A DNA stretch of 64,000 nucleotides from a virus (IMGVR_UViG_3300030085_004590:32001-96000); one strand, 5' to 3'. Positions 25,169 through 51,021 are shown, counted from the first letter of the stretch. Notes: a model not told the origin generated them from the sequence alone. A program made the numbers and translations.

Positions 25169-26307
25169 AATTTATATTTTTATTTGATGAAGAATATCCA
25201 TCATGGTCTTTTCGAGGACCATTTACTGATTATATTCAAAACAATTTTGAGTATAGTTTTATAGATGATATAGATAAATCAAAAAATAATATTTTAATCA
25301 TTGAAGGAACTGAATGTTTTAAAGGACCACACAGAGTTTTTAAAAAAGAACTCTATGATTTAATTAAAGAAAATAATTTAAAGGTAATTTTTGCATCAAT
25401 TGCTGACCCATGTACTTGGTCTGATAAGATTAACTTTATGAATGATATAAATTCATACGGTCTGAAAGATAAAGTTTATTATGTGGATACTTGTGTAAAT
25501 CATTCTGAAGATTACAATACTTTTTGTTATCATCATTTTTTAGAAGAACCTGGTATTCATATGAAAAAGTGGGGAGATTTTAAATTTTTTGAAGAAAATG
25601 AATTAGGATATAAAAGTGAAGATATAACACTTGAAGAATTAGATATTTTTAGAAATAAAAAGTTTTTATCATTTAATAGAACAGTTGATAAAGATAATAG
25701 AATGAGTTTATTTCACACTTATCTTGAAAATGATTTTTCAGATTCTTATTTTAGTTTTCTTAATTTTTGTGCATCAGATGGTTCAGTACCATTTTTTACA
25801 AAAAGTAAAAAATTATCAATCGATGAATATAAAAGTAAACTCCCAATTGAGTTAGATACTAAAAATAGTGGAGTTAATTTACAAAGTTTTAAAACAAGTA
25901 ATACTTTTAAAAAAGATTTATTTTTAAATTCATGTATTAACATTGTTACTGAAACATCGTTTCAATGTAATGGATTATTTTTATCAGAAAAAATAATAAA
26001 ACCAATTGTATGTTACCAACCCTTCATAGTTGTAGGACCTTATAATTACTTAAAAGAATTACGAAGTTTGGGATACAAAACTTTCTCTGATTTTTGGGAT
26101 GAAAGTTATGATGAAATAGAAAATGGTGAAGATAGATATTTTGCAATTGAAAAATTAATTTTAGAATTAAATAGTAAAAGTATTAATGAATTAAATGAAA
26201 TTTATCAAAAAACTAAAAATATATGTATATATAATAGAGAGGTATTTAATAACTTCAAGGAAGATTCCATTCCTAACATAATAAAACAAATAGAAAATGA
26301 ATGGTAA
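25153..26307 (+). CDS. Putative glycosyltransferase-like protein, paralogue 2
   Basis: FLSFNR, INIVTET, SEKIIKPI, QPF, LGYKTFSDFWDESYD. Confidence 0.55.
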   Translation: MGSILKFIFLFDEEYPSWSFRGPFTDYIQNNFEYSFIDDIDKSKNNILIIEGTECFKGPHRVFKKELYDLIKENNLKVIFASIADPCTWSDKINFMNDINSYGLKDKVYYVDTCVNHSEDYNTFCYHHFLEEPGIHMKKWGDFKFFEENELGYKSEDITLEELDIFRNKKFLSFNRTVDKDNRMSLFHTYLENDFSDSYFSFLNFCASDGSVPFFTKSKKLSIDEYKSKLPIELDTKNSGVNLQSFKTSNTFKKDLFLNSCINIVTETSFQCNGLFLSEKIIKPIVCYQPFIVVGPYNYLKELRSLGYKTFSDFWDESYDEIENGEDRYFAIEKLILELNSKSINELNEIYQKTKNICIYNREVFNNFKEDSIPNIIKQIENEW

Positions 26308-27262
26308 AAAGGTTTTAATCACAGGTGCTAATGGATTAGTAGGAAATTACACCGTACAAAAATGTATCGATAGAGGTGCATTCGTAACTGCAGTTGATAT
26401 TGTTGAACCAACAAATCAAATCGAAAAATATAAGGATGAAAATTATCAATTCATCAAAGCAGATTTAAGAGAATTTAAAAGTTGTAAAAGAGTTGTCGAA
26501 GGACAAGATATAATACTTCATATTGCAGGTGTTAAAGGTTCACCTAAAAGAGCAATGGAACAACCAGCAGATTATTTTGTACCAATGTTACAATTTAATA
26601 CCAATATGATGGAAGCAGCAAGATTAGAAGATGTAGAGTGGTATGTATATACATCGACTGTTGGTGTTTATCAACCCGCTGAGGTATTTTATGAGGATGA
26701 TGTATGGAAAACCTTCCCATCAGAAAAAGATAAGTATGCTGGATGGGCAAAGAGATTGGGTGAATTACAAGCTGAAGTATATTCAGTATCATTCGATTGG
26801 AATAAAGCATCAGTTGTAAGACCAGCAAACATTTATGGTAGACATGACAACTTCGGACCAGAATCAACAGTAATCGCTTCACTTATTAAAAGATTATTTG
26901 GTGAAAAAGAACATCCACTAATTTGTTGGGGAGATGGAACACCAATCAGAGATTTTATTTATGCTGGTGATGTTGCAGATGGAATCATAAAAGCATACGA
27001 ACAAAAATTAACACAACCAATCAATTTAGGTAGTGGTACTGGTGTTACTATTAAAGAACTTGCAGAAACTCTCGTAGAAATATACGAAGATATGTATGGA
27101 GTTAAAGTTGGTATCGAATGGGATACTACAAAACCAAATGGTGATGCAAAAAGATTAATGAGTACAGAAAGAGCAGAATCTTTCGGTATCAAACAACAAG
27201 TATCCTTAAAAGAAGGATTAAAAGAAACAATAGATTATTATTTAAATGAATTTAAAAAATGA
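26297..27262 (+). CDS. GDP-L-fucose synthase-like NDP-sugar epimerase/reductase
   Basis: GANGLVG, RPANIYG, WGDGTPIRDFIY, INLGSG, WDTTKPNG. Confidence 0.85.
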   Translation: MNGKKVLITGANGLVGNYTVQKCIDRGAFVTAVDIVEPTNQIEKYKDENYQFIKADLREFKSCKRVVEGQDIILHIAGVKGSPKRAMEQPADYFVPMLQFNTNMMEAARLEDVEWYVYTSTVGVYQPAEVFYEDDVWKTFPSEKDKYAGWAKRLGELQAEVYSVSFDWNKASVVRPANIYGRHDNFGPESTVIASLIKRLFGEKEHPLICWGDGTPIRDFIYAGDVADGIIKAYEQKLTQPINLGSGTGVTIKELAETLVEIYEDMYGVKVGIEWDTTKPNGDAKRLMSTERAESFGIKQQVSLKEGLKETIDYYLNEFKK

Positions 27263-28251
27263 AAAAAACAGATAAAATTTTAGTTACCGGAGCAAGTGGA
27301 TTTATAGGTTCACGATTAATCAAAATGTTATATGAATTAGGTTATGTAAACATTCGTGCAACATCATGGAGTAGAGATTTACGAAATGATTTTGAAGGCT
27401 GTGAAAACATAGAACACATAAAAGGAAACTTGCAAGATGCAGACTTTTGTGAGATAGTGTCGAAAGGATGTGATGTTATATTTCATGCAGCTGCTAATAC
27501 ATCGAACGCATTAGATACAAAATATAATCCGCTTCTCCATGTAACTCCCAATATAGAAATGAATGTAAATCTTATGGAACAATCATGGAAACATGGGGTT
27601 AAAAAGTTTATCTTTATATCATCAAATACAACTTATCCAGATTTAAAAGATGTACCTTGTACCGAAGATGTAGAAGTACAAACACCAGATATCGTACCAG
27701 TTTACAAAGCAGTAGGTTGGATGAAAAGATATTGTGAAACTCTTTGTGATTTCTTTTCAAATCAAATTCACAACCCAATGCAGTGTGTAATTATTAGACC
27801 TTCAAATGCATTTGGACCAAACGATAAGTACGATTTTGAAAAATGTCATGTTACACCTGCAAATATTAGAAAAGTTGCAGATAACCTAAATCCAATACCT
27901 GTTTGGGGAGATGGTACTGAAGTAAGAGATGTAATTCATGTTGATGATATGGTGAGTGGATTTATAACAGTTGCTGAAAAGGTTGATACATATGATATTT
28001 ACAATGTATCTTATGGTGAAGGATATACTGTTATGGAAGTACTTGATAAAATTAAAGAAATCGAAGGAAACACAAACCCAGTCGAATTCGTAAACAACAA
28101 GGCACCAATGATACCTGTCAGATTATTAGATAATCAAAAATTAAAAGATTTAGGTTGGACACCAAAATACGATTTAGAAAGTGGATTAAGAGATGCACTA
28201 TCTTGGTATAAGGAAAATAAAGACCAATTTAATCCAAATTCAAAACCTTAA
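27259..28251 (+). CDS. Second GDP-fucose-synthase-like epimerase/reductase
   Basis: GASGFIG, FGPNDKYD, HVTPA, WGDGTEVRDVIHVDD. Confidence 0.85.
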   Translation: MKKTDKILVTGASGFIGSRLIKMLYELGYVNIRATSWSRDLRNDFEGCENIEHIKGNLQDADFCEIVSKGCDVIFHAAANTSNALDTKYNPLLHVTPNIEMNVNLMEQSWKHGVKKFIFISSNTTYPDLKDVPCTEDVEVQTPDIVPVYKAVGWMKRYCETLCDFFSNQIHNPMQCVIIRPSNAFGPNDKYDFEKCHVTPANIRKVADNLNPIPVWGDGTEVRDVIHVDDMVSGFITVAEKVDTYDIYNVSYGEGYTVMEVLDKIKEIEGNTNPVEFVNNKAPMIPVRLLDNQKLKDLGWTPKYDLESGLRDALSWYKENKDQFNPNSKP

Positions 28252-28255
28252 TAAA

Positions 28256-28801
28256 ATGAGTGAACCAAAGTTTACACCATACTTAGATGCGTTAACAGAA
28301 GCAATGAAATTAAGTATGGAAGATGATAAAACTATATTCATCGGACAACAAATTGTTTATTATGGAAATCCAATGAGTAAAACCATTGAGGGATTACCAA
28401 AAGAAAGAATGATAGAAACACCAGTAATGGAAGAAGTTCAAATGGGTATGAGTTTAGGTCTTGCAATGTCTGGTCACAATGTGGTAAGTTTTTATCCAAG
28501 ATGGGATTTCTTAATTTGTGCAGCAAATCAATTGGTAAATCATTTAGATAAAATAAACATCATGTCAGATGGTGATTGGAATCCAAATGTAATTATAAGA
28601 GTTGGTAAAGGAAGTGATGTTCCATTAGACCCTGGTCACCAACACAAGGCAGATTATACAGAAGAATTCAAAACAATATTAAAACATACAAATGTAGTTA
28701 AACTTGATTCCCATGAAAAGATTCTACCTGCATACAAAAAAGCATTAAAAGGTGGTATTTGGGTGATGGTAGAATATCCTCAATTATATTATGAGAATTA
28801 A
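28256..28801 (+). CDS. TPP-dependent dehydrogenase E1 beta-like subunit (pyrimidine-binding domain only)
   Basis: FIGQ, ETPVME, GMSLGLA, NQLVNH, GHQH. ATG at 28256 follows the upstream stop. Confidence 0.82.
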   Translation: MSEPKFTPYLDALTEAMKLSMEDDKTIFIGQQIVYYGNPMSKTIEGLPKERMIETPVMEEVQMGMSLGLAMSGHNVVSFYPRWDFLICAANQLVNHLDKINIMSDGDWNPNVIIRVGKGSDVPLDPGHQHKADYTEEFKTILKHTNVVKLDSHEKILPAYKKALKGGIWVMVEYPQLYYEN

Positions 28802-30251
28802 AAGAGTATTTGATGTAAAAGGACCAATGGGGTTTGTACCTAATGGTATTAATTGGAATTTTACAAACATTTTTTGGAAATATAACTTTTATGTTACTCA
28901 TAAACTTATAGATGAGTTCAATGAAACATATGGACAGATTGGAGTATATGATTGTAATTTAAATTTATCAGAAGATTCAACAAAAAATTATCATATTAGT
29001 AATTTACATTACGATTCTAAAACAAAACTTGTAAACGGTAATAGAACAGAAAATTATTTCTATACTATTCATCCCTTTGGAAATATAAATGTATCAAGTG
29101 GTTCTGAACCAACTTATCATCAAGGTAGACATAGTTTCGATTTTATATCTAAAAAAGCAAAAGATTGTACAAATGCAAAAAACTTTTGGTTAGTTTATGA
29201 TTATAGTAGTGAAGGTGATATAAGACCTCACATTTTTAAGGAATTACACAAGGCATGTAAACGAAATAAAATTAACCCATCTAAAGTAATTGTAATTACT
29301 GCATCTGAAAATACATTTGATATTTATAAACAATATTTAAATAAACATCCACAAGAAAATTTATTTTATACGGCATTTTATCCTTGGTCATTATTAGGAA
29401 AAGCAAAAGATACTAATGCTATTTTAATTGAAAAGAAAAAAATTCATTTTAATAGTTTTAAAAATGAAAATTCATTAATGGAAGATAGTGAATTTGATTT
29501 ATTAACTAATAGAGAATCACACGCATTATGTTTAAATAGAAGATTAGCTGCACATAGAGTTGTAATTATTAGTTGGTTACTAGAAACTGGTTTATTTGAA
29601 AAAACAAAAACATCATTTGATTTATCGATGAGACATAATCATGATGAAATTGGATTAAATTTGGCATCTACAAGACCAGAACAAGGTGGACCATATCTTT
29701 CAAGTCAAGATAAGATTAACCAAATTCTTTCAGGTTTTAGAAAAATGAAAAAATTAGGAAAAAGTGTAGTTGATACTGAAGATATAAAAGGAGTATGGGG
29801 TTTTGCATTTGAAGATGCAAAAAATTATAAATCTACTTACTTTTCAATTGTAACCGAAACTCTATTTTATGAATTAGGTAATTATATTTCAGAAAAAACA
29901 TGGAAACCAATACAACATTTACATCCTTTTGTATTCGTAGGTAGACCTGGAATGTTAAAGTATTTACATAGTTTAGGATTTAAAACCTTTTCAGATTTTT
30001 GGGATGAAAGTTATGATACGATTGAAGATAATCCAACAAGGATGGATAAAATCTGTGAAGTTGTTTCTTTTCTTTTAAATAAATCTAAAGAAGAATGGGA
30101 TGAACTTAATAAAAAATTAAAACCAATTCTTATTCATAATAGAAACTTACTATTAACATTTCAAGAATATACTGTTGGGAATATTTATAAAAGTAAACTA
30201 GATGAATTAATTTCAAATGAACCTAATCAAAAAAATTATTACTTACTTTAA
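28791..30251 (+). CDS. Putative glycosyltransferase-like protein, paralogue 3
   Basis: LCLNRR...HR, FSIVTET, SEKTWKPI, HPF, LGFKTFSDFWDESYD. Confidence 0.55.
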   Translation: MRIKRVFDVKGPMGFVPNGINWNFTNIFWKYNFYVTHKLIDEFNETYGQIGVYDCNLNLSEDSTKNYHISNLHYDSKTKLVNGNRTENYFYTIHPFGNINVSSGSEPTYHQGRHSFDFISKKAKDCTNAKNFWLVYDYSSEGDIRPHIFKELHKACKRNKINPSKVIVITASENTFDIYKQYLNKHPQENLFYTAFYPWSLLGKAKDTNAILIEKKKIHFNSFKNENSLMEDSEFDLLTNRESHALCLNRRLAAHRVVIISWLLETGLFEKTKTSFDLSMRHNHDEIGLNLASTRPEQGGPYLSSQDKINQILSGFRKMKKLGKSVVDTEDIKGVWGFAFEDAKNYKSTYFSIVTETLFYELGNYISEKTWKPIQHLHPFVFVGRPGMLKYLHSLGFKTFSDFWDESYDTIEDNPTRMDKICEVVSFLLNKSKEEWDELNKKLKPILIHNRNLLLTFQEYTVGNIYKSKLDELISNEPNQKNYYLL

Positions 30252-30347: not shown

Positions 30348-30356
30348 ATATTTATA
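30348..30356 (+). promoter_or_regulatory. ATATTTATA motif
   Basis: 22 nt upstream of the 1803-aa ORF. Confidence 0.65.
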
Positions 30357-30378: not shown

Positions 30379-33300
30379 ATGAACAAACTCTCACAATTTC
30401 TTGTAGAGCAAATGCTCCTAGAGGATGAAAGTCCTATTAAGAAGGTCGTAGTAGTATATGGTGGTAGGTTTCAACCTATGCACAAAGGACACTACGGTAC
30501 ATACCAACATCTTGTCAAAAAATTCGGTAGAAATAATGTTTTTATCAGTACTTCCAACAAAGTAGAAAGACCAAAATCACCTTTTAACTTCAAAGAGAAG
30601 GTGAAAATCATGACTACAATGTTCAATATACCTAAATCAAAAATAGTACAGGTAAAAAACAATTATGCTCCAACAGAAATCCTCAAAAAATACGATAAAA
30701 ACACAACCGCCTTCATAACCGTTGTTGGTGAAAAGGATGCAGGAAGATTGGGTGGAAAGTATTTCAAACCATGGAAAGGAAAAGCAGAGGTTGGTTATGA
30801 GGATGGTGGTTATGTTTATGCCGCACCATCAAGTGGTGGTGGTATAAGCGGAACTGAAACTCGTAATGGGTTATCAGTAGGGTCGGATGACCAGAAGAAG
30901 TCTTTCTTTAAATCTCGTGCATATGGAAAGTTCAATGCAACGATTTTTAAGATGATTACGGACAAACTTAATGAGGGAGTAATCGAGATTTCTAAAGAAA
31001 GGATTGAAGAATGGCTCATCAACGAAAGTTCGAAGATGAGTTCAGGTCAAGTGGATGATGGGCCAAACTTCTTTTTCCCTAACTATGATGTATATTCTCG
31101 TATCAATGTAAAAAGAGCAGCAAAGATTGGATTTGAGGTAGTAAATATGATTACTTCTAAAGAAATCGAGGATTACTATGACCATCCAAGTTATCCTGAT
31201 GGGCCAGTAAAGGCAGTTACTTATTTCCCTGCTGGTGTTTTGGGTACAACAACCGCAACAAACCAAATTGATATTTATTCATCAAAAGCGTATTCCGATT
31301 GGTACAAACATTCAACTCGTAAAGCATCAATGGTTGGTTATGAGTTAGTTAAATCACTTGCAAATAAAGAAGATTTAAAACAAGATAAAGAACAATCAGT
31401 AGAAGATGCAAAAGGAGATAAGGTTTCTCAGAAAGAATACGAAGCATCTTTAAATGAAGCAATTACATTACCAGTTGAAGTTGGTGATACAATTCTAACT
31501 GGTAGATTTAAAAACAAAAAAACAGTTGTTAAAACTATTGGTAAAGATGAACATGGAATGCCAACTATTAATGGTAGAAAAGTTGTAAACTTTAGATTAG
31601 TGAAAGAAGGATTCCAAGCAATTTTTGAAGATGATGCAGATAAATATACTCATGTAGGTGGTGGTAACTACAAACCAAAAGGAAAAGAAGATGATGAAGA
31701 TGCACCTACTTTCAATAAAGATGGAGATAGATTTGTTCAAGTAGATAAAGGTGGTGATGATAAACCACAAGATGCTAAATCAAAAATTAGTGGTAAAGAT
31801 ATGTTCAAACATTCACCAGATATTAAAAAAGAAAAAGAACCCAAAAAACAAGGATTCTTTTCTAAATTATTTGGTCTACCAAGTTCACCAGAAGAAAAGA
31901 AAAAAGTACTTACACTTAAAAGTATAGAAAATGTAGATGATAAAGAGTTTGCAAAACACATTAAGAAAAAAGTATTACCAAACCTACCAGATAAAAGTAA
32001 AGAAGAACTTAAACCTATTTTACAAAAGTATGTTGAACTAAAAAAACAACTTAAGAAAACAGATGATGATGATGAACAATCAGAAATAATGTATAAACAA
32101 GATAAGATTCGTGATTATGTTTATGATTATACAAAAGAAAAAATGAATGAGATTGCTGGTACGGCAGTTGATTGTGAAAAGTGTAATCACTCTTGGGATA
32201 TAGAGGCAAATGATAATGAAAAATATTTATGTCATAATTGTGGATGGGATTCACAAAAACAAGAGTATGATTATGATGCATTTGATTCATGGCAGGAAAA
32301 AATGGGATTGAATGAAAGAAGTAAAGGTAAATTAAGACCTGCTGATTTACTAAGAAGAAAAGCAGCAATGGCTGGTAAACGAGCTGCAATTGCAAGAAGA
32401 AGAAAAAGAACTATGATGAGGAGAAAACCTCTTGCTAAACTAAAAAAGATTGCATACAAAAAAGCATACCTACAAGTTTATGATGAGTTTATGAAGGATT
32501 TATTTCCTGGTATGAAGAAAAAGGATTTATCAATCCAACAAGCAAAGATAGTTCATAAGAATGTATTAAGAAAAAAGAAAAGAGTTCTTAAAAGAGCAAG
32601 ATTTAAATTCTTACCTGCTTTAAGAGCAAAAGAGGCAGAAAAATTCGGTGATAAATCAGAAACAAACGAATTAATGATTGGATATGCAGGACCTGAAGAT
32701 ATGAAAAGGTTTGCAAAGAGAAATAAAGAATATAGAAAAGATGCTGAATCAAGTAAGGAGTATCAATACGAACCAATTAAAGAACAATCAGATAAAAAAA
32801 CACAATGTATCAATAACTTTGTAGAATATGCTTGTAAAAGATTAAAACTTGATGGTAATCCAAAGATATCTTTGATGAGTGGTACAGAATATGCAGATAC
32901 TCATAAAAGTTTAGGTGGTTTCAATCCACAAACAAAAGAAATCTATGTTGCAACTGAAAATAGATTAACTGCTGATATTTGTAGAACGATTGCACATGAA
33001 TTAGTTCATAGAAAACAAGATGAGATGGGATTATTAAAAGACCCAATCAAAGATGGAGCAGATGGTTCACCGATTGAAAATCAAGCACATGCAGTTGCAG
33101 GAATTATAATGAGAGAATATGGTAGAATTGATGATACAATTTACCAAGAAGGAATTAACTCTTTTTATTACGATGATTTAGCAAAGTATGTTTACAAAAA
33201 AAGAGGAGAGATTAACAGATTATTCAAAAACTTACCTGATGAGAAAAAGGCTGAGTATTTAGAAAAACTTTACATCAAATTATTCCAGGGCCCAACTTCA

Positions 33301-35790
33301 AGAATGGTACATAGAGATATCAAAGGTAAGGGTGGTGAATTATTAAAGATGTTGAGAAAGGATAGAAGATTAAAAGAACAATGTGAAAGATTACCAAACG
33401 AATCAGAACAAGATTACAGAAGGAGATGTTTTGGTTACAATCCTTTAACTCCACCACCTGCAGGATTACAAAGATTAGGTGAGAATAAAGCAACAAGAAC
33501 AAAATTCAATTTAACAATACCTTCTGATATTAAAAAACTTCAAAAGGCATTTAAGAAAGATAAAAAACAACTTTATGTAGTTGGTGGAGCAGTTAGAGAT
33601 GCACTTCTTGGTAAAAAACCAAAAGATTTTGATTTAACAACAGATGCAACACCAGAAGAAATGATTAAGATTGCGAAACAAGGTAAATTTAAACATTCTA
33701 CAACAAATGTAAATGCAAATCTTGATTTAGGAAGTATAATCATCAATGGACACGAAGTAACTACATTCAGACAAGATGTTGGTAAAGGTAGGAGACCAGA
33801 TAAAGTAGTTTATTGTGATATTTCAACAGATTCTAAGAGAAGAGATTTAACTTGTAACTCTTTATACTACGATATTGATAAAAAAGAGATTATTGATTTC
33901 CATGGTGGTGTAGAAGATTTGAAAAAAGGAGTTATTAGAACAGTTGGTAAAGCAAAAGAAAGATTTGATGAGGACCCATTAAGAAAATTAAGAGCAGTAA
34001 GGTTCGAAACTCGATTAGGTGCTAAATTAGATAAAGAAACTTTAGATGCACTTAAAAAAGATAACAAAATAACACAACTTTCATATCAAAGAATAAGTGA
34101 TGAGTTTATAAGTGCAATAAAACAATCAAAAAACACTAAAGTTTACTTAGATAGATGTGATGAAGTTGGGTTTACACCACAAATTCTACCAGGTCTTAAA
34201 GTAAGTAAACCATATCCACACGATAATAACCCAATTACTTTAATGGCATTTATTCTAAGAGATAATGACCCTGCAAAAGTAGGTAAAATATTAAATAAAA
34301 TCAATTATAGTAATGAAATTAAAGATGCAATAGTGTTTTTAATATCATTAAAAGGATTTAAACCTGAATTGATTGTACCATTTAAGAAACTACATGATAA
34401 AATAAAGTTATCAGATAGTGATATTGTAGATTTTGGTAAAAGAATTGGTAAAAAACTTGATAAATTTGTTAAATTCAAGTTATCTGTAAAAGGAAAAGAT
34501 GTACCAAAGGATATACCCGATGGGCCAGAGAAAGGTTTGTGGATAAAGAATAGAGAAAAAGAACTATTCATGAAAGAAGGTATCCTTACAGAAGGTGGTG
34601 CGTATGGACATATGTCTCACCCATTCGATACTGATATCAATTTAACCTTTGGACAACTAAAAGATATCGTAAATCGTGCACTCGAAGGTACACTTGAATT
34701 CACAAGAGAGAAAACTGATGGTCAAGCTCTTGCAATTTCATGGAGAGATGGAAGATTAGTAGCAGCAAGAAACAAAGGACACCTAAAAAACAAAGGTGAG
34801 AACGCTTTAGATATCAAAGGAGTATCAGATAAGTTCCAAGGTAGAGGTGGATTATCAGATGCATACAATTATGCGATGAAAGACCTTTCAAATGCAATCA
34901 AAGCACTTACAGATAAACAAAGAGATAAGATTTTTAAACAAGGTGCGTGTTTTATGAACCTTGAAGTGATATATCCAACATCAGTTAATGTCATTCCTTA
35001 CGGCCAGGCGTTACTTGTGTTCCATGGAACGATGGAATATGATATGGAAGGTAAGGCAATTGGTGAAAATGGTGAAGCAGCAAGAATATTAGCTGGTATG
35101 ATTAAACAAGTTAACAAAGATGTACAAGATAACTACACTATTCAAGGGCCACCAATTGTAAAGTTACCTAAATCACAAGATTTATCAAAGAAAAGAGCAA
35201 AATATTCATCTCAAATCTCTAAATTACAAAAAGAATTCAAATTAAAGGATACAGATGGTGTTGCAAACTATCATCAAGCATGGTGGGAACAATGGGTTGA
35301 TAAAAACTCACCAACAACACTCGATAATAAAACCAAAATGGGGTTAGTTAAGAGATGGGCTTTCATGGATAAGAAATTTAGATTGGATAATAAGAATATT
35401 TCTGATTCTAAAACACTTGAATGGGCTAAGAAAACAGATAAAGATAATCATAAGAAGATATCAAAAGATAATCTAATGAAGTTTGAGAAAATCTTCTTAG
35501 GATTAGGTGCAGAAGTATTAGAATTTACTTCATCTGCACTTACAGTTAATCCTGATAAGGCAGTTCGTGATATAAAGAAACGAATTGATAAAACAATCAA
35601 AGATGTTAAGAAATCAGGTGACCCAAAAAAGATAGAAAAACTAAAATTAGAACTTGGTAGGTTAAATTCTATTGGTGGTTCTAAGAAAATTGTACCAAAT
35701 GAAGGTATAGTATTTTTATATAAAGGAAATACTTTTAAACTTACAGGTACATTTGCATCTGTAAACCAAATCCTTGGTATTTTCTTCTAA
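30379..35790 (+). CDS. Multidomain putative polyprotein: HxGH nucleotidyltransferase + Zn ribbon + basic domain + HExxH peptidase + CCA-adding/tRNA nucleotidyltransferase + ligase-like domain
   Basis: GGRFQPMHKGH; CEKC...CHNC; IAHELVH; VGGAVRD...DFD...RRD...EDPLR; EKTDG...NLEV...EGIVF...FKLTG. Confidence 0.85.
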   Translation: MNKLSQFLVEQMLLEDESPIKKVVVVYGGRFQPMHKGHYGTYQHLVKKFGRNNVFISTSNKVERPKSPFNFKEKVKIMTTMFNIPKSKIVQVKNNYAPTEILKKYDKNTTAFITVVGEKDAGRLGGKYFKPWKGKAEVGYEDGGYVYAAPSSGGGISGTETRNGLSVGSDDQKKSFFKSRAYGKFNATIFKMITDKLNEGVIEISKERIEEWLINESSKMSSGQVDDGPNFFFPNYDVYSRINVKRAAKIGFEVVNMITSKEIEDYYDHPSYPDGPVKAVTYFPAGVLGTTTATNQIDIYSSKAYSDWYKHSTRKASMVGYELVKSLANKEDLKQDKEQSVEDAKGDKVSQKEYEASLNEAITLPVEVGDTILTGRFKNKKTVVKTIGKDEHGMPTINGRKVVNFRLVKEGFQAIFEDDADKYTHVGGGNYKPKGKEDDEDAPTFNKDGDRFVQVDKGGDDKPQDAKSKISGKDMFKHSPDIKKEKEPKKQGFFSKLFGLPSSPEEKKKVLTLKSIENVDDKEFAKHIKKKVLPNLPDKSKEELKPILQKYVELKKQLKKTDDDDEQSEIMYKQDKIRDYVYDYTKEKMNEIAGTAVDCEKCNHSWDIEANDNEKYLCHNCGWDSQKQEYDYDAFDSWQEKMGLNERSKGKLRPADLLRRKAAMAGKRAAIARRRKRTMMRRKPLAKLKKIAYKKAYLQVYDEFMKDLFPGMKKKDLSIQQAKIVHKNVLRKKKRVLKRARFKFLPALRAKEAEKFGDKSETNELMIGYAGPEDMKRFAKRNKEYRKDAESSKEYQYEPIKEQSDKKTQCINNFVEYACKRLKLDGNPKISLMSGTEYADTHKSLGGFNPQTKEIYVATENRLTADICRTIAHELVHRKQDEMGLLKDPIKDGADGSPIENQAHAVAGIIMREYGRIDDTIYQEGINSFYYDDLAKYVYKKRGEINRLFKNLPDEKKAEYLEKLYIKLFQGPTSRMVHRDIKGKGGELLKMLRKDRRLKEQCERLPNESEQDYRRRCFGYNPLTPPPAGLQRLGENKATRTKFNLTIPSDIKKLQKAFKKDKKQLYVVGGAVRDALLGKKPKDFDLTTDATPEEMIKIAKQGKFKHSTTNVNANLDLGSIIINGHEVTTFRQDVGKGRRPDKVVYCDISTDSKRRDLTCNSLYYDIDKKEIIDFHGGVEDLKKGVIRTVGKAKERFDEDPLRKLRAVRFETRLGAKLDKETLDALKKDNKITQLSYQRISDEFISAIKQSKNTKVYLDRCDEVGFTPQILPGLKVSKPYPHDNNPITLMAFILRDNDPAKVGKILNKINYSNEIKDAIVFLISLKGFKPELIVPFKKLHDKIKLSDSDIVDFGKRIGKKLDKFVKFKLSVKGKDVPKDIPDGPEKGLWIKNREKELFMKEGILTEGGAYGHMSHPFDTDINLTFGQLKDIVNRALEGTLEFTREKTDGQALAISWRDGRLVAARNKGHLKNKGENALDIKGVSDKFQGRGGLSDAYNYAMKDLSNAIKALTDKQRDKIFKQGACFMNLEVIYPTSVNVIPYGQALLVFHGTMEYDMEGKAIGENGEAARILAGMIKQVNKDVQDNYTIQGPPIVKLPKSQDLSKKRAKYSSQISKLQKEFKLKDTDGVANYHQAWWEQWVDKNSPTTLDNKTKMGLVKRWAFMDKKFRLDNKNISDSKTLEWAKKTDKDNHKKISKDNLMKFEKIFLGLGAEVLEFTSSALTVNPDKAVRDIKKRIDKTIKDVKKSGDPKKIEKLKLELGRLNSIGGSKKIVPNEGIVFLYKGNTFKLTGTFASVNQILGIFF

Positions 35791-35814: not shown

Positions 35815-35823
35815 ATATTTATA
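35815..35823 (+). promoter_or_regulatory. ATATTTATA motif
   Basis: Intergenic, before the ATG at 35851. Confidence 0.65.
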
Positions 35824-35850: not shown

Positions 35851-36510
35851 ATGGGTAAAGAATTCAAAAAGAAATATATGCACCCAACTCGTAGAAAGTT
35901 GGTAAACATGATAAAGACCGGTGAGTATGAAAAAAATACTACAATCGGTTGGAATGCTAAGAAAGAAGAAAGAAAAGTTGGTGATGTTTGGGAAGATGAA
36001 CATCATAGATATGAAAAGAAAGAGGGATATACTCTTAAAACCAACAAAAACTCAGAAACATTCCAAGAAATTAGAAAATATTTAGAAGAAAAATCTAAAT
36101 GTAAGAATTCTGAATGTAAAACAAAGAAAATTACAGCAAAAGATAAAAAGTTCATTGAAAAGGGTGGTTTTTGTATAAATTGTACTGCAGATAGAGAACA
36201 TAATATAAGAACTGCAGGATTATGGGAAGATTACCAAAATTATAAGGTATGGACTAGAATGATAATCTATGGTAAAAATAAATTAGAACAATATAGAGAA
36301 TCATTAGGTGATTTAAAAGAAGAATATCACATGCATAACGACCAAGGAGAAATAACTGAAACTTGGAAGTTACCAAAACCAATTGATGAGGTTCGAGCAG
36401 AAATACAAGAACTCATTGATTATGGTGAAGGGGAAATAAAAGAGTTGGAAGCAAAAAAGGAAGAAGCTTTTAACAAAATAAAGGAAAAAAATTATGAACA
36501 TTATATTTAA
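35851..36510 (+). CDS. Hypothetical protein with Cys cluster and coiled coil
   Basis: 219-aa ORF; CKNSEC...CINC. Confidence 0.7.
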   Translation: MGKEFKKKYMHPTRRKLVNMIKTGEYEKNTTIGWNAKKEERKVGDVWEDEHHRYEKKEGYTLKTNKNSETFQEIRKYLEEKSKCKNSECKTKKITAKDKKFIEKGGFCINCTADREHNIRTAGLWEDYQNYKVWTRMIIYGKNKLEQYRESLGDLKEEYHMHNDQGEITETWKLPKPIDEVRAEIQELIDYGEGEIKELEAKKEEAFNKIKEKNYEHYI

Positions 36511-37183
36511 TTTGTTATTTAAAAGATGGAAGGAGTTATTAATCCTTCTTTTAATTGGTATCATATTCTTAATGAGAGGATGTGGACCAGATAATAGTGA
36601 TAAAGAAATAATAAACATAGATGGTGAAGATTTTGAATTACTTAAACAAGAAACTGATACAGTTTTTGTAGAAAAAGAAGTTCAAGTAACAAAATATGTT
36701 CCAAGATATATAACAAAAGAAGTAATCAAAGAAGTGGAGATACCAGTAGATGTAGATTCACTTGCAATTATCAAAGATTACTTTTCAAGAGTAACAGTAA
36801 CAGATACTTTGAACTTAAATTATGATTTTCCAAAAGAAGTTACAGATTCTTTGGGACAAAAACCACCAAGTAGTTTAGGATATGGTATTCTTACTGATGT
36901 TATTTCACAAAATAGAATAGAATCAAGAGAAATTGATTGGTTCTTCAGAATTCCAACAGTTTACAACACTACAATTGTAAAAGAGTTACCTAAAAACGAA
37001 TTTTATTATGGTTTCGGATTAGGAGTTGACCAAACAAATGGATTTGGTAACTTTAGTTTGAATGGATTGTTAAAAACTAAGAAAATGAATATCTATGGAT
37101 TAAATGTAGGTATGTCAAATCAAGCAGGACAATACAAACCATTCGTTGGTACATCACTATATTGGAAAATAGGTAAAAAATAA
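36494..37183 (+). CDS. Membrane-anchored/lipoprotein, possible spanin-like lysis protein
   Basis: Hydrophobic LLILLLIGIIFL followed by MRGC; C-terminal amphipathic beta strands ending GTSLYWKIGKK. Confidence 0.5.
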   Translation: MNIIFNLLFKRWKELLILLLIGIIFLMRGCGPDNSDKEIINIDGEDFELLKQETDTVFVEKEVQVTKYVPRYITKEVIKEVEIPVDVDSLAIIKDYFSRVTVTDTLNLNYDFPKEVTDSLGQKPPSSLGYGILTDVISQNRIESREIDWFFRIPTVYNTTIVKELPKNEFYYGFGLGVDQTNGFGNFSLNGLLKTKKMNIYGLNVGMSNQAGQYKPFVGTSLYWKIGKK

Positions 37184-38776
37184 ATGGCAAAAACATCTTT
37201 AAAAGATATAATCAAGATTGAGTATCAGAAATGTGCCTCAGACCCAATACACTTCATGAAGAAGTATTGTATGATTCAACATCCTGTCCGAGGTAAGATA
37301 CCATTTCACTTATTTCCTTTTCAAGAAAGAACTTTAGATGAATTTACCAAACATAGATACAACATTATTCTAAAATCAAGACAGACAGGTATCTCAACCT
37401 TAACTGCAGGATTTGCATTATGGAAAATGTTGTTTAATCAAGATTTTAATGTATTAGTTATTGCGACTAAACAAGAAGTTGCTAAGAACCTTGTAACGAA
37501 GGTTCGTGTAATGAACCAATACTTACCAAGTTGGTTAAAACAAACAACAGTAGAAGATAACAAACTATCTCTACGATACTCCAATGGTTCACAAATCAAA
37601 GCAACATCAGCAGCTGGTGATGCTGGTCGTTCTGAAGCATTATCCTTATTAGTATTTGATGAGGCAGCTTTCATTGATAAGATTGAAGATATATGGATAT
37701 CAGCACAATCTACCCTTTCAACAGGTGGTAACGCAATTATCCTTTCAACACCCAATGGTGTCGGAAATTTCTTTCACAAAACTTGGGTAGGTGCAGAAGA
37801 AGAAGAAAATGGGTTCAATACAATCAGATTACATTGGACAGTTCATCCTGAAAGAAATCAAGATTGGAGAGATGAACAAGAAAAGTTATTGGGAGTAAAA
37901 GGTGCAGCACAAGAATGTGATTGTGATTTCGTTTCTTCTGGTGATACAGTTATTGACCCACAACTTTTACAATTTTACAAAGAATCTTATATTCAAGAAC
38001 CAATTGAAAAGACAGGATTTGATGGAAACCTTTGGAAATGGGAATATCCAAATTACAACAAAGGTTACATGGTTGTTGCCGATGTTGCGAGAGGAGATTC
38101 AACCGATTATTCGGCATGTCATGTAATTGATATTGAACAAGCAACTCAAGTTGCAGAATATAAAGGTAAATTAGATACAAAAGATTTTGGAAACTTTCTT
38201 GTATCACTTGCAACTGATTACAATCAAGCATTACTTGTTATTGAGAATGCAAATATTGGTTGGGCAGTAATACAACAAGTAATTGATAGAGGTTATCAAA
38301 ATCTATTCTACATGAGTAAGGATTTAAAATATGTAGATGTTGAACATCAACTATCAAATAGATATAGAGCCGAGGAACGAGGAATGGTTGCAGGATTTTC
38401 TACAACTTCTAAAACACGACCTTTGATTATATCAAAGTTAGATGATTATTTTAGAGATAAATCAGTAACAGTTCGTTCAGCAAGATTAATCGATGAATTA
38501 TTCACTTTTATATGGAAAGGAAATAGGGCAGAAGCAATGCAAGGATACAACGATGATTTAACAATGTCATTCGCAATTGGTCTTTGGGTTAGAGATACTG
38601 CACTTAGATTAAGACAAGAAGGAATTGATTTAACTAAACAAGCATTGGGTGGTATTGGAGCACATCAATTAGATATTGCAGGTATGGGATTTGGTGGTAA
38701 TACTCAATTAGAAGATAATCCTTGGAAACAAAGAGTTGGTGATAGAGATGAGGATTTAACTTGGTTAATTAAATAA
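37184..38776 (+). CDS. Terminase large subunit (T4 gp17-like)
   Basis: PFQ, KSRQTGIST Walker A, VFDEAAF Walker B, STPNG, ADVARG nuclease motif, DDL. Confidence 0.95.
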   Translation: MAKTSLKDIIKIEYQKCASDPIHFMKKYCMIQHPVRGKIPFHLFPFQERTLDEFTKHRYNIILKSRQTGISTLTAGFALWKMLFNQDFNVLVIATKQEVAKNLVTKVRVMNQYLPSWLKQTTVEDNKLSLRYSNGSQIKATSAAGDAGRSEALSLLVFDEAAFIDKIEDIWISAQSTLSTGGNAIILSTPNGVGNFFHKTWVGAEEEENGFNTIRLHWTVHPERNQDWRDEQEKLLGVKGAAQECDCDFVSSGDTVIDPQLLQFYKESYIQEPIEKTGFDGNLWKWEYPNYNKGYMVVADVARGDSTDYSACHVIDIEQATQVAEYKGKLDTKDFGNFLVSLATDYNQALLVIENANIGWAVIQQVIDRGYQNLFYMSKDLKYVDVEHQLSNRYRAEERGMVAGFSTTSKTRPLIISKLDDYFRDKSVTVRSARLIDELFTFIWKGNRAEAMQGYNDDLTMSFAIGLWVRDTALRLRQEGIDLTKQALGGIGAHQLDIAGMGFGGNTQLEDNPWKQRVGDRDEDLTWLIK

Positions 38777-38780
38777 TTAT

Positions 38781-38789
38781 ATATTTATA
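38781..38789 (+). promoter_or_regulatory. ATATTTATA motif followed by AAGGAG (38794-38799)
   Basis: Intergenic, before 38808. Confidence 0.65.
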
Positions 38790-38807: not shown

Positions 38808-39188
38808 ATGATTTCAATGAAAAACTTACTTAATGAAAACGAAAGTTATTGTAGTGAATACTATGTAGAAAACTATCACGATATAAAAGAATTCGTAGAA
38901 TTCATGAAATCGTATAAAGAAGATATCAACGAGGCAGAATACCAAGGAAGAAAAGTAAAACTTGGTAAACCAATGCAAGGTGATGTTAAGAAATTCAAAG
39001 TATATGTTAAAAATCCCCAAGGTAATGTAGTAAAAGTAAACTTTGGTCATAAAGGAAAAGGTGGAGAGAAAACAATGTCAATCAAAAAGAATAATCCTCA
39101 AAGGAGAAAATCTTTTAGAGCAAGACATAATTGTGATAACCCAGGTCCAAGACACAAAGCAAGATACTGGTCATGTAGAGCATGGTAA
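38808..39188 (+). CDS. Conserved basic phage protein with acidic leader, probable head-internal protein
   Basis: MISMKNLLNE leader; KVNFG...RRKSFRARHNC...ARYWSCRAW. Confidence 0.7.
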   Translation: MISMKNLLNENESYCSEYYVENYHDIKEFVEFMKSYKEDINEAEYQGRKVKLGKPMQGDVKKFKVYVKNPQGNVVKVNFGHKGKGGEKTMSIKKNNPQRRKSFRARHNCDNPGPRHKARYWSCRAW

Positions 39189-39225: not shown

Positions 39226-40962
39226 ATGGCAGATACTTCATTTTTTGGTAGATTAACGAAACTATTCAGAGCTCAAGCGGTGGTTACCATCGATAAGCAG
39301 GGTAGAAGAAAAGTTGTAGATACCGATGAAAGACAACAAACGAATCTATCATCTCTAAGAGATAGATACACTAAGATTCAGAAATCTTTCTTCGAACAAG
39401 CAGGTGGTGCACAATCAATGGCATACCAACAAGTTCGTAGAGAGGTATTCAGAGATTATGATGCAATGGATAACGACCCAATATTAGCATCAGCACTTGA
39501 TATATACGCAGATGAATCAACTCTTAAAAACGAGTTTGGTAATCAACTTACAATTGTATCAGATAATGATAAAGTACAAGAAATACTAAGAAACTTATTT
39601 TACGATATTCTTAACATTGAGTTCAACTTATGGCCATGGGTAAGAAATATGTGTAAGTATGGAGATTTCTTCTTAGGTTTAGAAATCGCCGAAGGTAAAG
39701 GTATCGTAAATGTTACTCCTCACTCTGTTTACAATACAGAAAGATTAGAAAGAACAGACCCATCAAATCCAAATTCAGTAAAGTTCAAAATTACTGAGGA
39801 CCCGAATGGTAAAGAAGAATATGAAAACTTTGAAATAGCTCACTTTAGATTATTAGCGGATACTAACTGGTTGCCTTATGGTAAATCCATGATTGAGAAT
39901 GGTAGAAGATTGTGGAAACAGTTATCTCTAATGGAAGATGCTATGTTAATCCATAGAATCATGAGAGCACCAGAAAAGAGAGTATTCAAAGTGGACATAG
40001 GAAATATCCCTCCAACAGAGGTTGATAACTATATGCAAAGAATCATCAATAAAATGAAGAAAGTTCCTTTCGTTGATAGAAATACTGGTGATTACAACTT
40101 AAAGTACAATATGCAAAATCTAACTGAAGATTTCTACTTACCAGTTAGAGGTGGTGATAGTGGTACAAACATTGAAAACCTTGCAGGTTTAGAATATGCA
40201 ACTATCGAAGATATTGATTACTTAAAAAACAAATTATTTGCAGCTCTTAAAATTCCAAAAGCTTATTTAGGATATGAAGAAAACATTGCAGGTAAAGCAA
40301 CTCTTGCTGCTGAAGATGTTAGATTTGCAAGAACAATCGAAAGAATTCAAAGAACAGTAATTTCAGAATTAACTAAAATTGCAATCGTACATTTATACTC
40401 ACAAGGTATTCAAGATTCAGAAATGGTTAACTTTGAATTACAATTAGTAAATCCATCATTTATTTACGAACAAGAAAAAGTAAACTTGTGGAGTGAAAAA
40501 ATTAGATTGGCTCAAGATATTCAAGGATTGAATATGTTATCTAAAGATTGGGTATATGATAATATTTTCAAATTATCAGATGCTGAATCAGATGAACAAA
40601 AAATTAAGATGATTGATGATTTAAAAGATAGATTTAGATTCAGGTCTATTGAGGATGAAGGTAATGACCCAGCAATGGAAGATGAAGAACCAGATGATAT
40701 CGAAGAATCTTTAGAAAAACTTAAACAAGAAATCAAAGATAAAGGTGGTAGACCAAGAGAAGGTGGAACTTATGGAAAAGATAAACATCCATATGGTAGA
40801 GACCCACTTGGAAATAAAGAAAGAAAAGATGCAAAGAAGAATACAACTTCTGAAGAAAAAGCTTTAAAATATATTAGTGGAATTGCATCAAAAAGAAAGT
40901 ATTTACACGAAATAAAAGATATGTTAGACGAGGATAATATCCTCAAAGATACAGAAAATTAA
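39226..40962 (+). CDS. Portal protein (T4 gp20-like)
   Basis: MEDAMLIHRIMRAPEKRVFKVDIGN, EDFYLPVRG, DIDYL...ALKIP. Confidence 0.95.
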   Translation: MADTSFFGRLTKLFRAQAVVTIDKQGRRKVVDTDERQQTNLSSLRDRYTKIQKSFFEQAGGAQSMAYQQVRREVFRDYDAMDNDPILASALDIYADESTLKNEFGNQLTIVSDNDKVQEILRNLFYDILNIEFNLWPWVRNMCKYGDFFLGLEIAEGKGIVNVTPHSVYNTERLERTDPSNPNSVKFKITEDPNGKEEYENFEIAHFRLLADTNWLPYGKSMIENGRRLWKQLSLMEDAMLIHRIMRAPEKRVFKVDIGNIPPTEVDNYMQRIINKMKKVPFVDRNTGDYNLKYNMQNLTEDFYLPVRGGDSGTNIENLAGLEYATIEDIDYLKNKLFAALKIPKAYLGYEENIAGKATLAAEDVRFARTIERIQRTVISELTKIAIVHLYSQGIQDSEMVNFELQLVNPSFIYEQEKVNLWSEKIRLAQDIQGLNMLSKDWVYDNIFKLSDAESDEQKIKMIDDLKDRFRFRSIEDEGNDPAMEDEEPDDIEESLEKLKQEIKDKGGRPREGGTYGKDKHPYGRDPLGNKERKDAKKNTTSEEKALKYISGIASKRKYLHEIKDMLDEDNILKDTEN

Positions 40963-40980
40963 TTAATCTTATATAATTTT

Positions 40981-40989
40981 ATATTTATA
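40981..40989 (+). promoter_or_regulatory. ATATTTATA motif
   Basis: Intergenic, after portal. Confidence 0.65.
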
Positions 40990-42683: not shown

Positions 42684-42860
42684 ATGACTAAAAGAGAATT
42701 GTACGATATCATCAATGAGGAAATCGTTAACTTTAAAAAAGGAAAAATTAACGAAGAACTCACCGAATCTGATAAAAATCTAATTAGAAAAATTATCAGA
42801 CAAGAAGTATCTGCAATCTTTTTTGATTTGTTTAAGAAAAGAAAAACTTGGGGAGCATAA
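42684..42860 (+). CDS. Hypothetical protein, 58 aa (absent from ORF track)
   Basis: MTKRELYDIINEEIVNFKKGKINEELTESDKNLIRKIIRQEVSAIFFDLFKKRKTWGA; fills the gap, stop overlaps the protease ATG (TAATG). Confidence 0.7.
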   Translation: MTKRELYDIINEEIVNFKKGKINEELTESDKNLIRKIIRQEVSAIFFDLFKKRKTWGA

Positions 42861-43453
42861 TGAATAAATTACTAATAGAAACAAGATTATTCGAGGGTAA
42901 GGTAAACGAAGATGATAGTGGAAGAACTATCGTTAAGGGTATTCTACAAAGAGCTGGTGCAGAAAATCAGAATGGTAGAATATATCCTAAACCTATCCTT
43001 ATGAGAGAAGCAAAGAAATACGAACAACTAATTAAAGAAAGAAGAGCATTAGGTGAATTAGACCATCCTGATTCTTCTGTAATCAACCTAAAGAATGTAT
43101 CTCACAATGTAAGAGAGATTCATTGGGATGGTGATGATTTAGTAGGAACAGTTGAGATTTTACCAACCCCAAGCGGTAACATCTTAAAAGAACTTTTACA
43201 AGCAGGTATTCTATTAGGTATTTCATCAAGAGGTATGGGTTCAGTAGAACCTTTGACTGGTGGTAAAGTTCAAGTAGGTGAAGATTTTGAATTAATCGGT
43301 TGGGATTTCGTATCTAACCCATCTACTCATGGAGCATTTATGGTTCCTATGAACGAATCTGTGAACAAACAAATTCAAGAACAAGCAGTAGTTTGTAATG
43401 AATGGTGTAAGGCACAAGATATGATGAGAGAAATTATAACAGAATTAAATTAA
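42860..43453 (+). CDS. Prohead core protease (T4 gp21-like)
   Basis: NQNGRIYP, ALGELDHP (His), GISSRGMG (Ser), DFVSNPS. Confidence 0.95.
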   Translation: MNKLLIETRLFEGKVNEDDSGRTIVKGILQRAGAENQNGRIYPKPILMREAKKYEQLIKERRALGELDHPDSSVINLKNVSHNVREIHWDGDDLVGTVEILPTPSGNILKELLQAGILLGISSRGMGSVEPLTGGKVQVGEDFELIGWDFVSNPSTHGAFMVPMNESVNKQIQEQAVVCNEWCKAQDMMREIITELN

Positions 43454-43457
43454 GGTT

Positions 43458-43646
43458 ATGGGATTTAATGTACAGGACTTTATGTCCAAAAATAAATTTA
43501 AGTTGGGTAAAGTTACCAGAGAAGTAGGAGAAACTCCATTCAAAGGTGGACACAACGATATAAGAAAAACAAACTATGAAGTTAAGTTAACCGAAGATGG
43601 TAAACTTGATTTATATACACATAAAACGGAGACAAAAGAATTATGA
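43458..43646 (+). CDS. Hypothetical protein, 62 aa
   Basis: Co-oriented ORF coupled to the next gene. Confidence 0.55.
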   Translation: MGFNVQDFMSKNKFKLGKVTREVGETPFKGGHNDIRKTNYEVKLTEDGKLDLYTHKTETKEL

Positions 43647-51012: not shown

Positions 51013-51021
51013 ATATTTATA
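51013..51021 (+). promoter_or_regulatory. ATATTTATA motif restarting transcription after the terminator
   Basis: Between terminator and neck gene; AAGGAG at 51040-51045. Confidence 0.7.

Follow-up and report, generated by a model that had tools for sequence, protein, structure and literature searches.

The window, a 64,000-nt stretch of the viral genome record IMGVR_UViG_3300030085_004590, contains an open reading frame (ORF) for a multidomain protein of 1803 residues that ends in a ligase-like domain. This domain comprises 399 residues (34591-35787 on the plus strand, ORF residues 1405-1803) and is numbered below from residue 1 at position 34591. It is probably an ATP-dependent RNA ligase of a new clade within the covalent, lysine-nucleotidylating superfamily, a reading to which we assign a probability of roughly 0.6. 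Parts of this reading are firmer than the whole: judging from the structural model, the domain very probably has a ligase-type fold, and its conserved residues make it likely to be an active lysine nucleotidyltransferase. By sequence comparison, it lies closest to the T4 Rnl1/Trl1 branch. An original prediction, made from the DNA, had proposed a divergent RNA ligase or adenylyltransferase at this place, and it is supported computationally by the fold searches and weak profile alignments described below.

Catalytic motifs of the ligase-like domain

The motifs named in the original prediction, EKTDG, NLEV, LVFH, EGIVF and FKLTG, are all present in the translation where it had placed them. Conservation was counted with hmmalign in an alignment of the domain and 150 listed representatives of 50%-identity clusters, the denominators in Table 1 being the numbers of aligned residues. 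Motif I contains K41 (34711-34713), the predicted nucleotidyl-accepting lysine. Motifs III, IIIa, IV and V follow in canonical order, and all of them lie on beta strands of the model. The motif pattern is not due to chance, since it is near-invariant across the 150 representatives. Two conserved elements had not been noticed in the original prediction: ARNK, which opens a motif Ia-like segment, and the N-terminal pattern GGAxGHMxHPFD, which hhalign places on NENPFT, residues 80-85 of T4 Rnl1.

The assignment of FKLTG as a motif V-like element, proposed in the original prediction, agrees with its place and its conservation; the caveat is that it contains one lysine and not the two of Rnl1 and Rnl2. 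Because the protein ends 13 residues after FKLTG, there is no space for an oligonucleotide/oligosaccharide-binding (OB) domain, as had been predicted. The all-helical module of about 170 residues between motifs IIIa and IV carries an invariant KRWAF element, with R255 kept in 148 of 149 sequences. The part of this module at 35257-35364 (residues ~223-258) contains conserved YHQxWW and GLVKRWAF, W256 being invariant among close relatives; both elements are candidate substrate-contact sites.

Predicted fold and structural matches

The AlphaFold2 model of the domain, calculated from a 28-sequence alignment with identities down to 38%, has a predicted local distance difference test score (pLDDT) of 92.3 and a predicted template modelling score (pTM) of 0.86. 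Strands carrying motifs I to IIIa occupy residues 36-160, residues ~196-366 are all helix, as expected from the long helical insert postulated earlier, and strands appear again at 372-377 and 380-384, where the last two of them carry motifs IV and V.

A wide search of 48,161 chains was performed with VIA-align, which is independent of Foldseek. Its eight best non-helical matches are RNA ligases (Z 8.7-7.3, 176-201 residues aligned): NgrRnl (5cot, Z 8.7, 188 residues aligned, root-mean-square deviation 4.1), REL1 (1xdn, Z 8.3), T4 Rnl2 (1s68 and 2hvq, Z 7.9 and 7.8), Trl1 (6n0t and 9r3w, Z 7.6 and 7.5), T4 Rnl1 (9do4, Z 7.4) and Candida Trl1 (9qw7, Z 7.3). DNA ligases come below them, at Z 6.9-5.0. 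All eight RNA-ligase alignments run from model residue 1-4 to 389-399 and thus extend over its two halves, so that the ligase core would be formed jointly by the strands near the N-terminus and the last two strands.

Structure prediction followed by Foldseek, the check suggested with the original prediction, also led to ligases. Among the 39 PDB matches listed, 38 are polynucleotide ligases, with fungal Trl1 at the top (E = 5.3e-3) and archaeal Rnl3, T4 Rnl1 and Naegleria Rnl5 among the further leading matches. Against the predicted viral structures of BFVD, 23 matches were obtained at E ≤ 1e-3; members of the family come first and are followed by annotated RNA ligases, including those of Lactococcus phage phiQ1 (2.8e-4) and Pseudomonas phage PspYZU05 (RnlA, 7e-4). 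The weight of this model-based evidence lies in the consistency of the list of RNA ligases and not in any single score.

Profile alignment with T4 RNA ligases

The T4 genes rnlA and rnlB were taken from AF158101, and a 25-sequence Rnl1 alignment was built for hhalign. The profile of the family aligns with the T4 Rnl1 family at E = 0.02, placing K41 on K99, ARNKGHLKN on FKSKGSIKS (Rnl1 116-124), E125 on E159 (NFEFVAP) and LLVFHGT of motif IIIa on ILLNVRE. When the halves were run separately, residues 8-188 fell on Rnl1 80-215 (E = 0.0087) and residues 359-392 on Rnl1 215-249 (E = 0.0084), with E371-G372 on E227-G228 and K383 on K240. T385 stands at the position of Rnl1 K242; both K240 and K242 are invariant in the Rnl1 alignment. 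Because the two aligned pieces abut on the Rnl1 side, the stretch of about 170 residues between them represents an insertion between motifs IIIa and IV.

Decoys were made by shuffling the columns of the Rnl1 alignment 40 times; the C-terminal piece scored 20.2, above their maximum of 17.3. T4 Rnl2 aligned at motif I only, EKTDG falling on EKIHG (K35) with E = 0.092, and the helical insert showed no significant likeness to the Rnl1 C-domain (hhalign E = 0.15). These weak profile signals are colinear, fall on the catalytic motifs and agree with the structure searches.

Proposed reaction

In the proposed reaction, K41 would attack the alpha-phosphate of ATP, yielding enzyme-AMP. The AMP would then pass to a 5'-phosphate RNA end, and the attack of a 3'-OH would seal the break. 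The nucleotide pocket would be lined by E125 of motif III, F144 and H145 of motif IIIa, E371 of motif IV and K383 of motif V, while the helical insert with its KRWAF element may take the substrate-recognition role of the add-on domains found in Rnl1 to Rnl5. Three features favour RNA as the substrate: an OB domain is absent, RNA ligases are matched better than DNA ligases, and the partners of the domain are of the tRNA-repair kind. The enzyme would probably serve to mend broken RNA, tRNA included, in the infected cell.

Relationship to known ligases and to DUF6267

Like T4 Rnl1 and Trl1, the domain has a nucleotidyltransferase fold in which motifs I, Ia-like, III, IIIa and IV and the first motif V lysine are colinear. 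A P-F element precedes motif I in both (HPFD here, NPFT in T4 Rnl1), phages encode T4 Rnl1 as well as this family, and the family is associated with enzymes that repair tRNA ends. T4 Rnl1 has an all-helical C-terminal domain after motif V, whereas the helical module of the present domain separates motifs IIIa and IV, and none follows motif V. The domain also differs from T4 Rnl1 in the absence of a PF09511 match, in its own GGAxGHMxH N-terminus, in the Thr replacing the second motif V lysine and in its usual place at the C-terminal end of a long protein with several domains. Rnl5, Rnl2 and REL1 (5cot, 1s68, 2hvq, 1xdn) are the best structural matches, with 188-193 residues aligned, but identity is only 13-14%, these enzymes carry N- or C-terminal add-on domains in place of an internal helical insertion, and the domain does not match PF09414. 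It is distinguished from DNA ligases (PF01068, PF01653) by the lack of an OB domain after motif V and by the absence of a match to either Pfam model.

The closest named relative is probably DUF6267 (PF19782), which would form a sister family. In the ESM Atlas feature search, the domain scores 0.97 to viral clusters with DUF6267 in 23-24% of their members. DUF6267 proteins have about 400 residues and a motif order like that of the domain, with the series HLEHLED / KWDG / GTKS / IVFHT / ~190-residue helical region / PEGFV / KL, and they adjoin or are fused to a CTP_transf_like gene. Synechococcus phage S-SZBM1 gp141 is a full-length DUF6267 protein (E = 3.7e-130) encoded beside the CTP_transf_like gp140; in contrast to the arrangement described here, the DUF6267 gene lies upstream of that for the transferase. 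The S-SZBM1 segment OL473597.1 78988-84007 comprises gp142, gp141 (DUF6267), gp140 with the leader MRFRQFIIE, and gp139.

In hhalign, the family aligns with DUF6267 weakly, though in colinear fashion (E = 0.32 over the full length, 0.17 over the N-terminal and 0.024 over the C-terminal part). The BFVD lists of both models overlap: the S-PM2 protein A0A0M6VVW4 matches the domain at 7.3e-5 and DUF6267 at 5.6e-31, and A0A6J5MBE6 matches them at 1.8e-36 and 7.5e-4, respectively. PF19782 itself did not match the domain at E ≤ 10; it was also absent from the record, a result of little weight because the control genomes were likewise empty. The AlphaFold model of DUF6267 is of poor quality, with a pLDDT of 70 that falls below 50 in the motif I region and over the last 50 residues, and a VIA-align search of the PDB with it returned only helical-bundle matches. 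A comparison of alignment A5 with the Rnl1 alignment (A4) showed no meaningful match (E = 0.18), and a literature search for DUF6267 found no published function.

Searches for further relatives of the domain revealed a large family. A near-length search gave 1870 matches among 90%-identity clusters, and with a profile built from 20 sequences, a full scan by HMMER recovered 2044 representatives at E ≤ 1e-3, each standing for a cluster at 50% identity. In public databases, the relatives are called "hypothetical", "uncharacterized" or "cytidyltransferase-like domain-containing"; the last label derives from the fused N-terminal domain.

Partner domains

An NMNAT-like nucleotidyltransferase domain is located close to the N-terminus of the 1803-residue protein. 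The nearest NCBIfam models are of the NadM/NMNAT type, below their cut-offs, and tblastn finds matches to phage NadM-type NMNAT genes. A CCA-adding module lies directly upstream of the ligase-like domain; its PolyA_pol head (PF01743, residues 1065-1187) was recognized at E = 7.8e-30, and NCBIfam NF009814 matches at E = 9.6e-44, below the cut-off. According to a review (PMC7824862), CCA-adding, HD and P-loop-kinase partners are the usual company of phage RNA-repair ligases.

The Pfam scan covered 42 members, namely the ORF of the window and 41 fused relatives. CTP_transf_like was found in 23 of the 42, DUF5661 in 5, PolyA_pol of the CCA type in 4, PolyA_pol_RNAbd and ROS_MUCR in 3 each, the P-loop kinase families AAA_33 and Zeta_toxin as well as AAA_18 and HD in 2 each, and KTI12 in 1. 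Synteny was analyzed in 80 IMG/VR loci with relatives of at least 64% identity, in which 54 ligase-bearing ORFs are N-complete: 46 of these are led by the NMNAT-like domain, 6 consist of the ligase only (401-414 residues) and 2 combine CCA-adding and ligase modules. The ligase-bearing ORFs range in length from 401 to 1917 residues, the long relatives (760-1917 residues) having both terminal modules in common with the protein of the window; the middle modules are variable and the ligase-like domain is constant at the C-terminus. Downstream on the same strand, the TerL gene is present in 74 and the portal gene in 64 of the 80 loci, the rest being mostly cut by contig ends. Microcystis phage Mel-JY01 encodes a fusion of CTP_transf_like and ligase-like domains (640 residues, 40.6% identity) a few genes before the terminase.

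Other stretches of the 1803-residue protein gave weak matches. A CxxC...CxxC zinc-ribbon-like stretch at 32161-32250 (residues ~595-624) resembles HypA (E = 0.0097), and an HExxH stretch, IAHELVHRKQ, at 32884-33045 (residues ~836-889) resembles DUF6782, "putative metallopeptidase" (E = 0.28). The HExxH module is reminiscent of the zincin domains that serve autoprocessing in polyvalent proteins (Iyer et al., 2017; PMC5512222). Polyvalent proteins are similar to the protein studied here in being multidomain with variable enzymatic cargo, and the available part of that paper describes no RNA-ligase, NMNAT or CCA-adding module in them. Nor is such a module described in the part available of a survey of NAD systems (PMC9503650).

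Table 1. Positions in the window of the ligase-like domain, its motifs, the other parts of the 1803-residue protein and neighbouring genes
Feature	Position	Strand	Evidence or conservation
Multidomain ORF of 1803 residues, C-terminal module is the ligase-like domain	30379..35790	+	ORF list, translation
N-terminal motif GGAYGHMSHPFD, pattern GGAxGHMxHPFD	34594..34629	+	G2 143/144, H7 141/144, H10 138/145
Motif I, EKTDG, residues 40-44	34708..34722	+	K41 146/147, D43 147/147, G44 147/147
Motif Ia-like, ARNKGHLKN	34765..34791	+	R60 149/149, N61 145/149, K62 136/149
Motif III, FMNLEVIYP (NLEV residues 123-126, from 34957)	34951..34977	+	E125 150/151; model strand 120-127
Motif IIIa, LLVFHGT (LVFH residues 142-145, from 35014)	35011..35031	+	F144 142/151, H145 149/151; model strand 141-150
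All-helical module, ~170 residues, between IIIa and IV	35155..35664	+	Model helices ~196-366
Motif IV, NEGIVF (EGIVF residues 371-375, from 35701)	35698..35715	+	E371 149/150, G372 150/150, F375 149/150; model strand 372-377
Motif V, FKLTG, residues 382-386	35734..35748	+	K383 149/149, T385 145/149, G386 147/149; model strand 380-384
Junction MKEGILTE directly before GGAYGHM	34570..34593	+	Candidate prohead-protease cut site
CCA-adding (class II tRNA nucleotidyltransferase) module, ORF residues 1063-1325	33565..34353	+	phrog_2244 E 1.3e-49
NMNAT-like HIGH-motif nucleotidyltransferase (GRFQPMHKGH), ORF residues 26-117	30454..30729	+	PF01467 CTP_transf_like E 9.8e-07
N-terminal leader MNKLSQFLVEQMLLE (MNKLSQFLVE-QMLLE)	30379..30423	+	Two [LI]xE motifs, capsid-targeting-like
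Promoter-like motif TATTTATA, 23 nt upstream of ATG	30349..30356	+	
Large terminase	37184-38776		
Portal	39226-40962		
T4 gp21-type prohead protease	42848-43453	+	PF03420 Peptidase_S77 E 6.6e-27
gp23-type capsid protein	49319-50923		
NAD-dependent epimerase/dehydratase, two genes	26297-27262 and 27259-28251		
Transketolase-like pyrimidine-binding, weak match	28193-28801		Pfam E 0.00015, below cut-off

Alternative explanations

A number of results weigh against the assignment of the domain as an RNA ligase. The sequence signals to known ligases are singly weak, with hhalign E-values of only 0.02 to 0.009, and the N-terminal piece scored 25.7 against 26.6 for the best of the 40 Rnl1 decoys. The VIA-align Z-scores of 7-9 are rated middling by the tool itself, and none of the PDB matches of Foldseek attained E ≤ 0.001, the TM-scores being about 0.2 over the whole model. 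The domain matched nothing in Pfam (at E ≤ 1 and then at E ≤ 10), PHROGs or NCBIfam, and hence no ligase-family model. PF09414 and PF09511, searched on the record, were absent as well; for PF09511 the control genomes were equally empty, so that this negative carries little weight. Motif V (KLTG) has a single lysine, and the preference for RNA over DNA rests on gene context and the missing OB domain. Searches of PDB sequences with phmmer and hmmsearch returned only insignificant matches to motif I of LigA (E ~3) and low-complexity matches to eS6, which were rejected as compositional, arising from the K-rich helical region. This empty outcome in the sequence databases agrees with the label of "unknown function" that the original prediction expected for the protein.

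One alternative is that the domain seals nicks in DNA or DNA/RNA hybrids and replaces a missing gp30-type ligase in replication or repair. Further points against an RNA ligase belong here, namely that no PF01068 or PF01653 ligase is found on the 123-kb record and that the complete 190-kb genome of Mel-JY01 lacks PF01068, its sole PF01653 signal (PP395634.1 12008-12163, E = 0.004, 13.4 bits, below the cut-off) lying inside the homologue of the domain; the weak PDB sequence matches at motif I are likewise to LigA. However, the record is only about 64% complete, RNA ligases are the best structural matches with DNA ligases at lower Z-scores, and the gene has late head genes as its neighbours and a CCA-adding enzyme as its fusion partner, rather than replication genes. 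To our knowledge, all characterised DNA ligases carry an OB domain, for which a protein ending 13 residues past motif V leaves no place. Together these features make a DNA ligase quite improbable. It is unlikely, too, that the domain is a non-classical lysine-nucleotidylating enzyme, either an NAD+-dependent ligase or an adenylyltransferase acting on a target other than RNA, that forms a two-enzyme unit with the NMNAT-like partner; in the NAD+ version, this partner would remake the donor from nicotinamide mononucleotide (NMN) and ATP. The pairing with an NMNAT-like domain is the most constant feature of the family (46 of 54 ORFs, 23 of 42 members, the Mel-JY01 fusion and the neighbouring cyanophage genes gp141 and gp140), motif I is weakly LigA-like, the second motif V lysine is missing, and the family has an invariant His-x-x-His-P-F-D element of its own. 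Yet a counterpart of the LigA Ia domain is absent, the closest folds are ATP-dependent RNA ligases, and the fusion is not obligatory, as evidenced by the ligase-only (6 of 54) and CCA plus ligase (2 of 54) ORFs, in which the partner may be a separate gene. The NMNAT-like domain could also be just another cargo.

A mainly non-catalytic role, in virion assembly or as the anchor of the polyprotein in the prohead, would be consistent with the invariably C-terminal position of the module, with the adjoining terminase, portal and protease genes, and with the closest sequence signal being T4 RnlA (gp63), which has a second role in attaching tail fibres and bears the annotation "RNA ligase 1 and tail fiber attachment catalyst". 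Such a role is very improbable, since, among about 150 divergent representatives, 146-150 retain each residue of the catalytic motifs, which is the signature of an active enzyme. The weakness of all sequence E-values to known ligases and the absence of Foldseek PDB matches at E ≤ 0.001 could suggest that the motifs are a chance resemblance on an unrelated fold. This is extremely improbable, given five near-invariant motifs in canonical order, two halves colinear with adjoining segments of Rnl1 and ligases at the top of three independent structure searches.

Leader, junction and possible capsid delivery

The ORF starts with a leader containing two [LI]xE motifs, and most complete relatives have a leader of the same form. 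In stand-alone ligase genes, MIRLxKLLNEVLLKE directly precedes GGAYGHM, and the same leader heads a different cargo in another relative. The N-terminal ends of T4 gp24 and Alt are cut by gp21. The leader described here resembles these N-termini (MAKINELLRE in gp24 and MELITELFDE in Alt; AF158101), and, like T4 capsid-targeted internal proteins and Alt, the protein is the product of a late gene beside head genes with a gp21-type protease nearby. The junction before the ligase-like domain could be a prohead-protease cut site: [LIVMF]-x-E stands directly before GG in 105 of 135 representatives. A bipartite Phi-x-E-x-PhiPhi-x-E pattern has a frequency of 1.11 per 1000 residues, compared with 0.40 after shuffling, and in the 1803-residue ORF it is found only at residues 8, 209 and 1398, corresponding to the leader and two domain borders. 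Linker cassettes also recur, KEYQYEPIKE being located before the HExxH module here and KEYQYQPITE before the ligase in one relative.

These features suggest that the protein may be packed into the prohead, where the gp21-type protease would free a ligase starting with GGAYGHM, to be injected with the DNA. In line with this, the gene has the upstream motif TATTTATA in common with head genes. In Synechococcus phage S-SZBM1, gp139 and gp140 (cytidylyltransferase) were detected in purified virions by liquid chromatography-mass spectrometry, according to the available part of PMC9146016.

Other observations speak against this route. In the same part of PMC9146016, gp141 (DUF6267) is not named among the 30 virion proteins. 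The residue directly before GG (P1) is Cys in 14 and Met in 12 of the representatives (26/135), while their Glu-type leaders are kept, and Leu-Leu before P1 is conserved regardless; since it is kept whatever the P1 residue, the junction residues may simply belong to the fold. The [LI]xE motif is not enriched in the 1803-residue ORF, with 13 sites against 16.0 +/- 3.6 in shuffles. Capsid delivery of the ligase-like domain is advanced as a tentative proposal, at somewhat below even odds. A changed protease specificity was considered for the Cys and Met junctions and rejected, as these are not paired with Cys- or Met-type leaders. A literature search found no description of phage RNA-repair enzymes delivered with DNA, although other cyanophage virion tables may hold detections.

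Short leaders ending in [LI]xE also occur on genes around the prohead protease (38808-39188, 43643-44782, 44793-45167, 45186-45899 and 48031-49290): MISMKNLLNE, MIKLGGLVTLKPITE, MKLLDILKE, MKLTQLMKE and MANSNLLKE.

The promoter-like motif TATTTATA upstream of the ORF recurs in the window. In the form TATAAATA it has 23 matches, of which 21 lie on the minus strand, so that the gene strand carries TATTTATA; the mean in 100 shuffled sequences was 12.7 +/- 3.4, and none of them attained 23. The motif lies 16-41 nt upstream of the ORF starts at 3611, 14234, 35851, 38808, 41030 and 51055, several of them structural genes, and may represent a late-promoter element of this phage group. Its occurrences are spread over 3587-61570, further examples being 35816-35823, 38782-38789, 40982-40989 and 51014-51021.

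Significance of the family

The superfamily and its reaction are already well known. New are the assignment of this family, and probably of DUF6267, to it, the insertion architecture, the single-lysine motif V, the NMNAT-like pairing and the modular setting linked to head genes. If the RNA-ligase assignment is correct, it provides a testable biochemical function for 2044 clusters of marine and freshwater phage proteins labelled hypothetical or mislabelled "cytidylyltransferase" after the neighbouring domain; DUF6267 probably joins the group (all 7995 scored relatives at E ≤ 1e-5). It would also define a ligase clade with a helical module inside the nucleotidyltransferase domain, a single motif V lysine and an N-terminal His-x-x-His. 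With a fixed place beside head genes, a leader like those of T4 and changing cargo, the protein suggests that RNA-repair enzymes are delivered together with the DNA, and this would bear on the phage response to anticodon-nuclease and related defences.

A more far-reaching proposal combines these elements into a capsid-delivered, protease-released unit of ligase and NMNAT-like enzyme, in which the adenylyl group would come from NAD+ or a dinucleotide made by the partner and which would serve as an early anti-defence kit, the ligase forming a clade with DUF6267. This combination is speculative and distinctly improbable. If it were true, the phage would inject a cofactor-self-sufficient RNA-sealing kit, here together with a CCA-adding enzyme, that acts in the first minutes of infection against host defences cleaving tRNA or depleting NAD+, and the domain would be the founding member of an RNA ligase clade that includes cyanophage DUF6267.

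Genome setting

The source record is 123 kb long, with a GC content of about 31%, coding on a single strand and an estimated completeness of 64%. It carries T4-type phage genes and comes from an uncultured marine T4-like phage. The nearest relatives of its capsid protein are those of an uncultured huge phage (57.6%) and Microcystis phage Mel-JY01 (52.5%), followed by Flavobacterium "immuto" phages (50.4%) and Rhodothermus phage RM378 (39.1%). ARAGORN detected no tRNA genes in the window.

Directly upstream of the ligase-bearing ORF lies a sugar-nucleotide cluster (25153-30251). It includes the epimerase/dehydratase genes and the weak transketolase-like match listed in Table 1, and a gene for a protein of 486 residues without a Pfam match, which is duplicated in some relatives. 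Two genes between this ORF and the terminase (35851-37183), encoding proteins of 219 and 229 residues, are likewise without a Pfam match; the first is syntenic in 77 and the second in 34 of the 80 relative loci.

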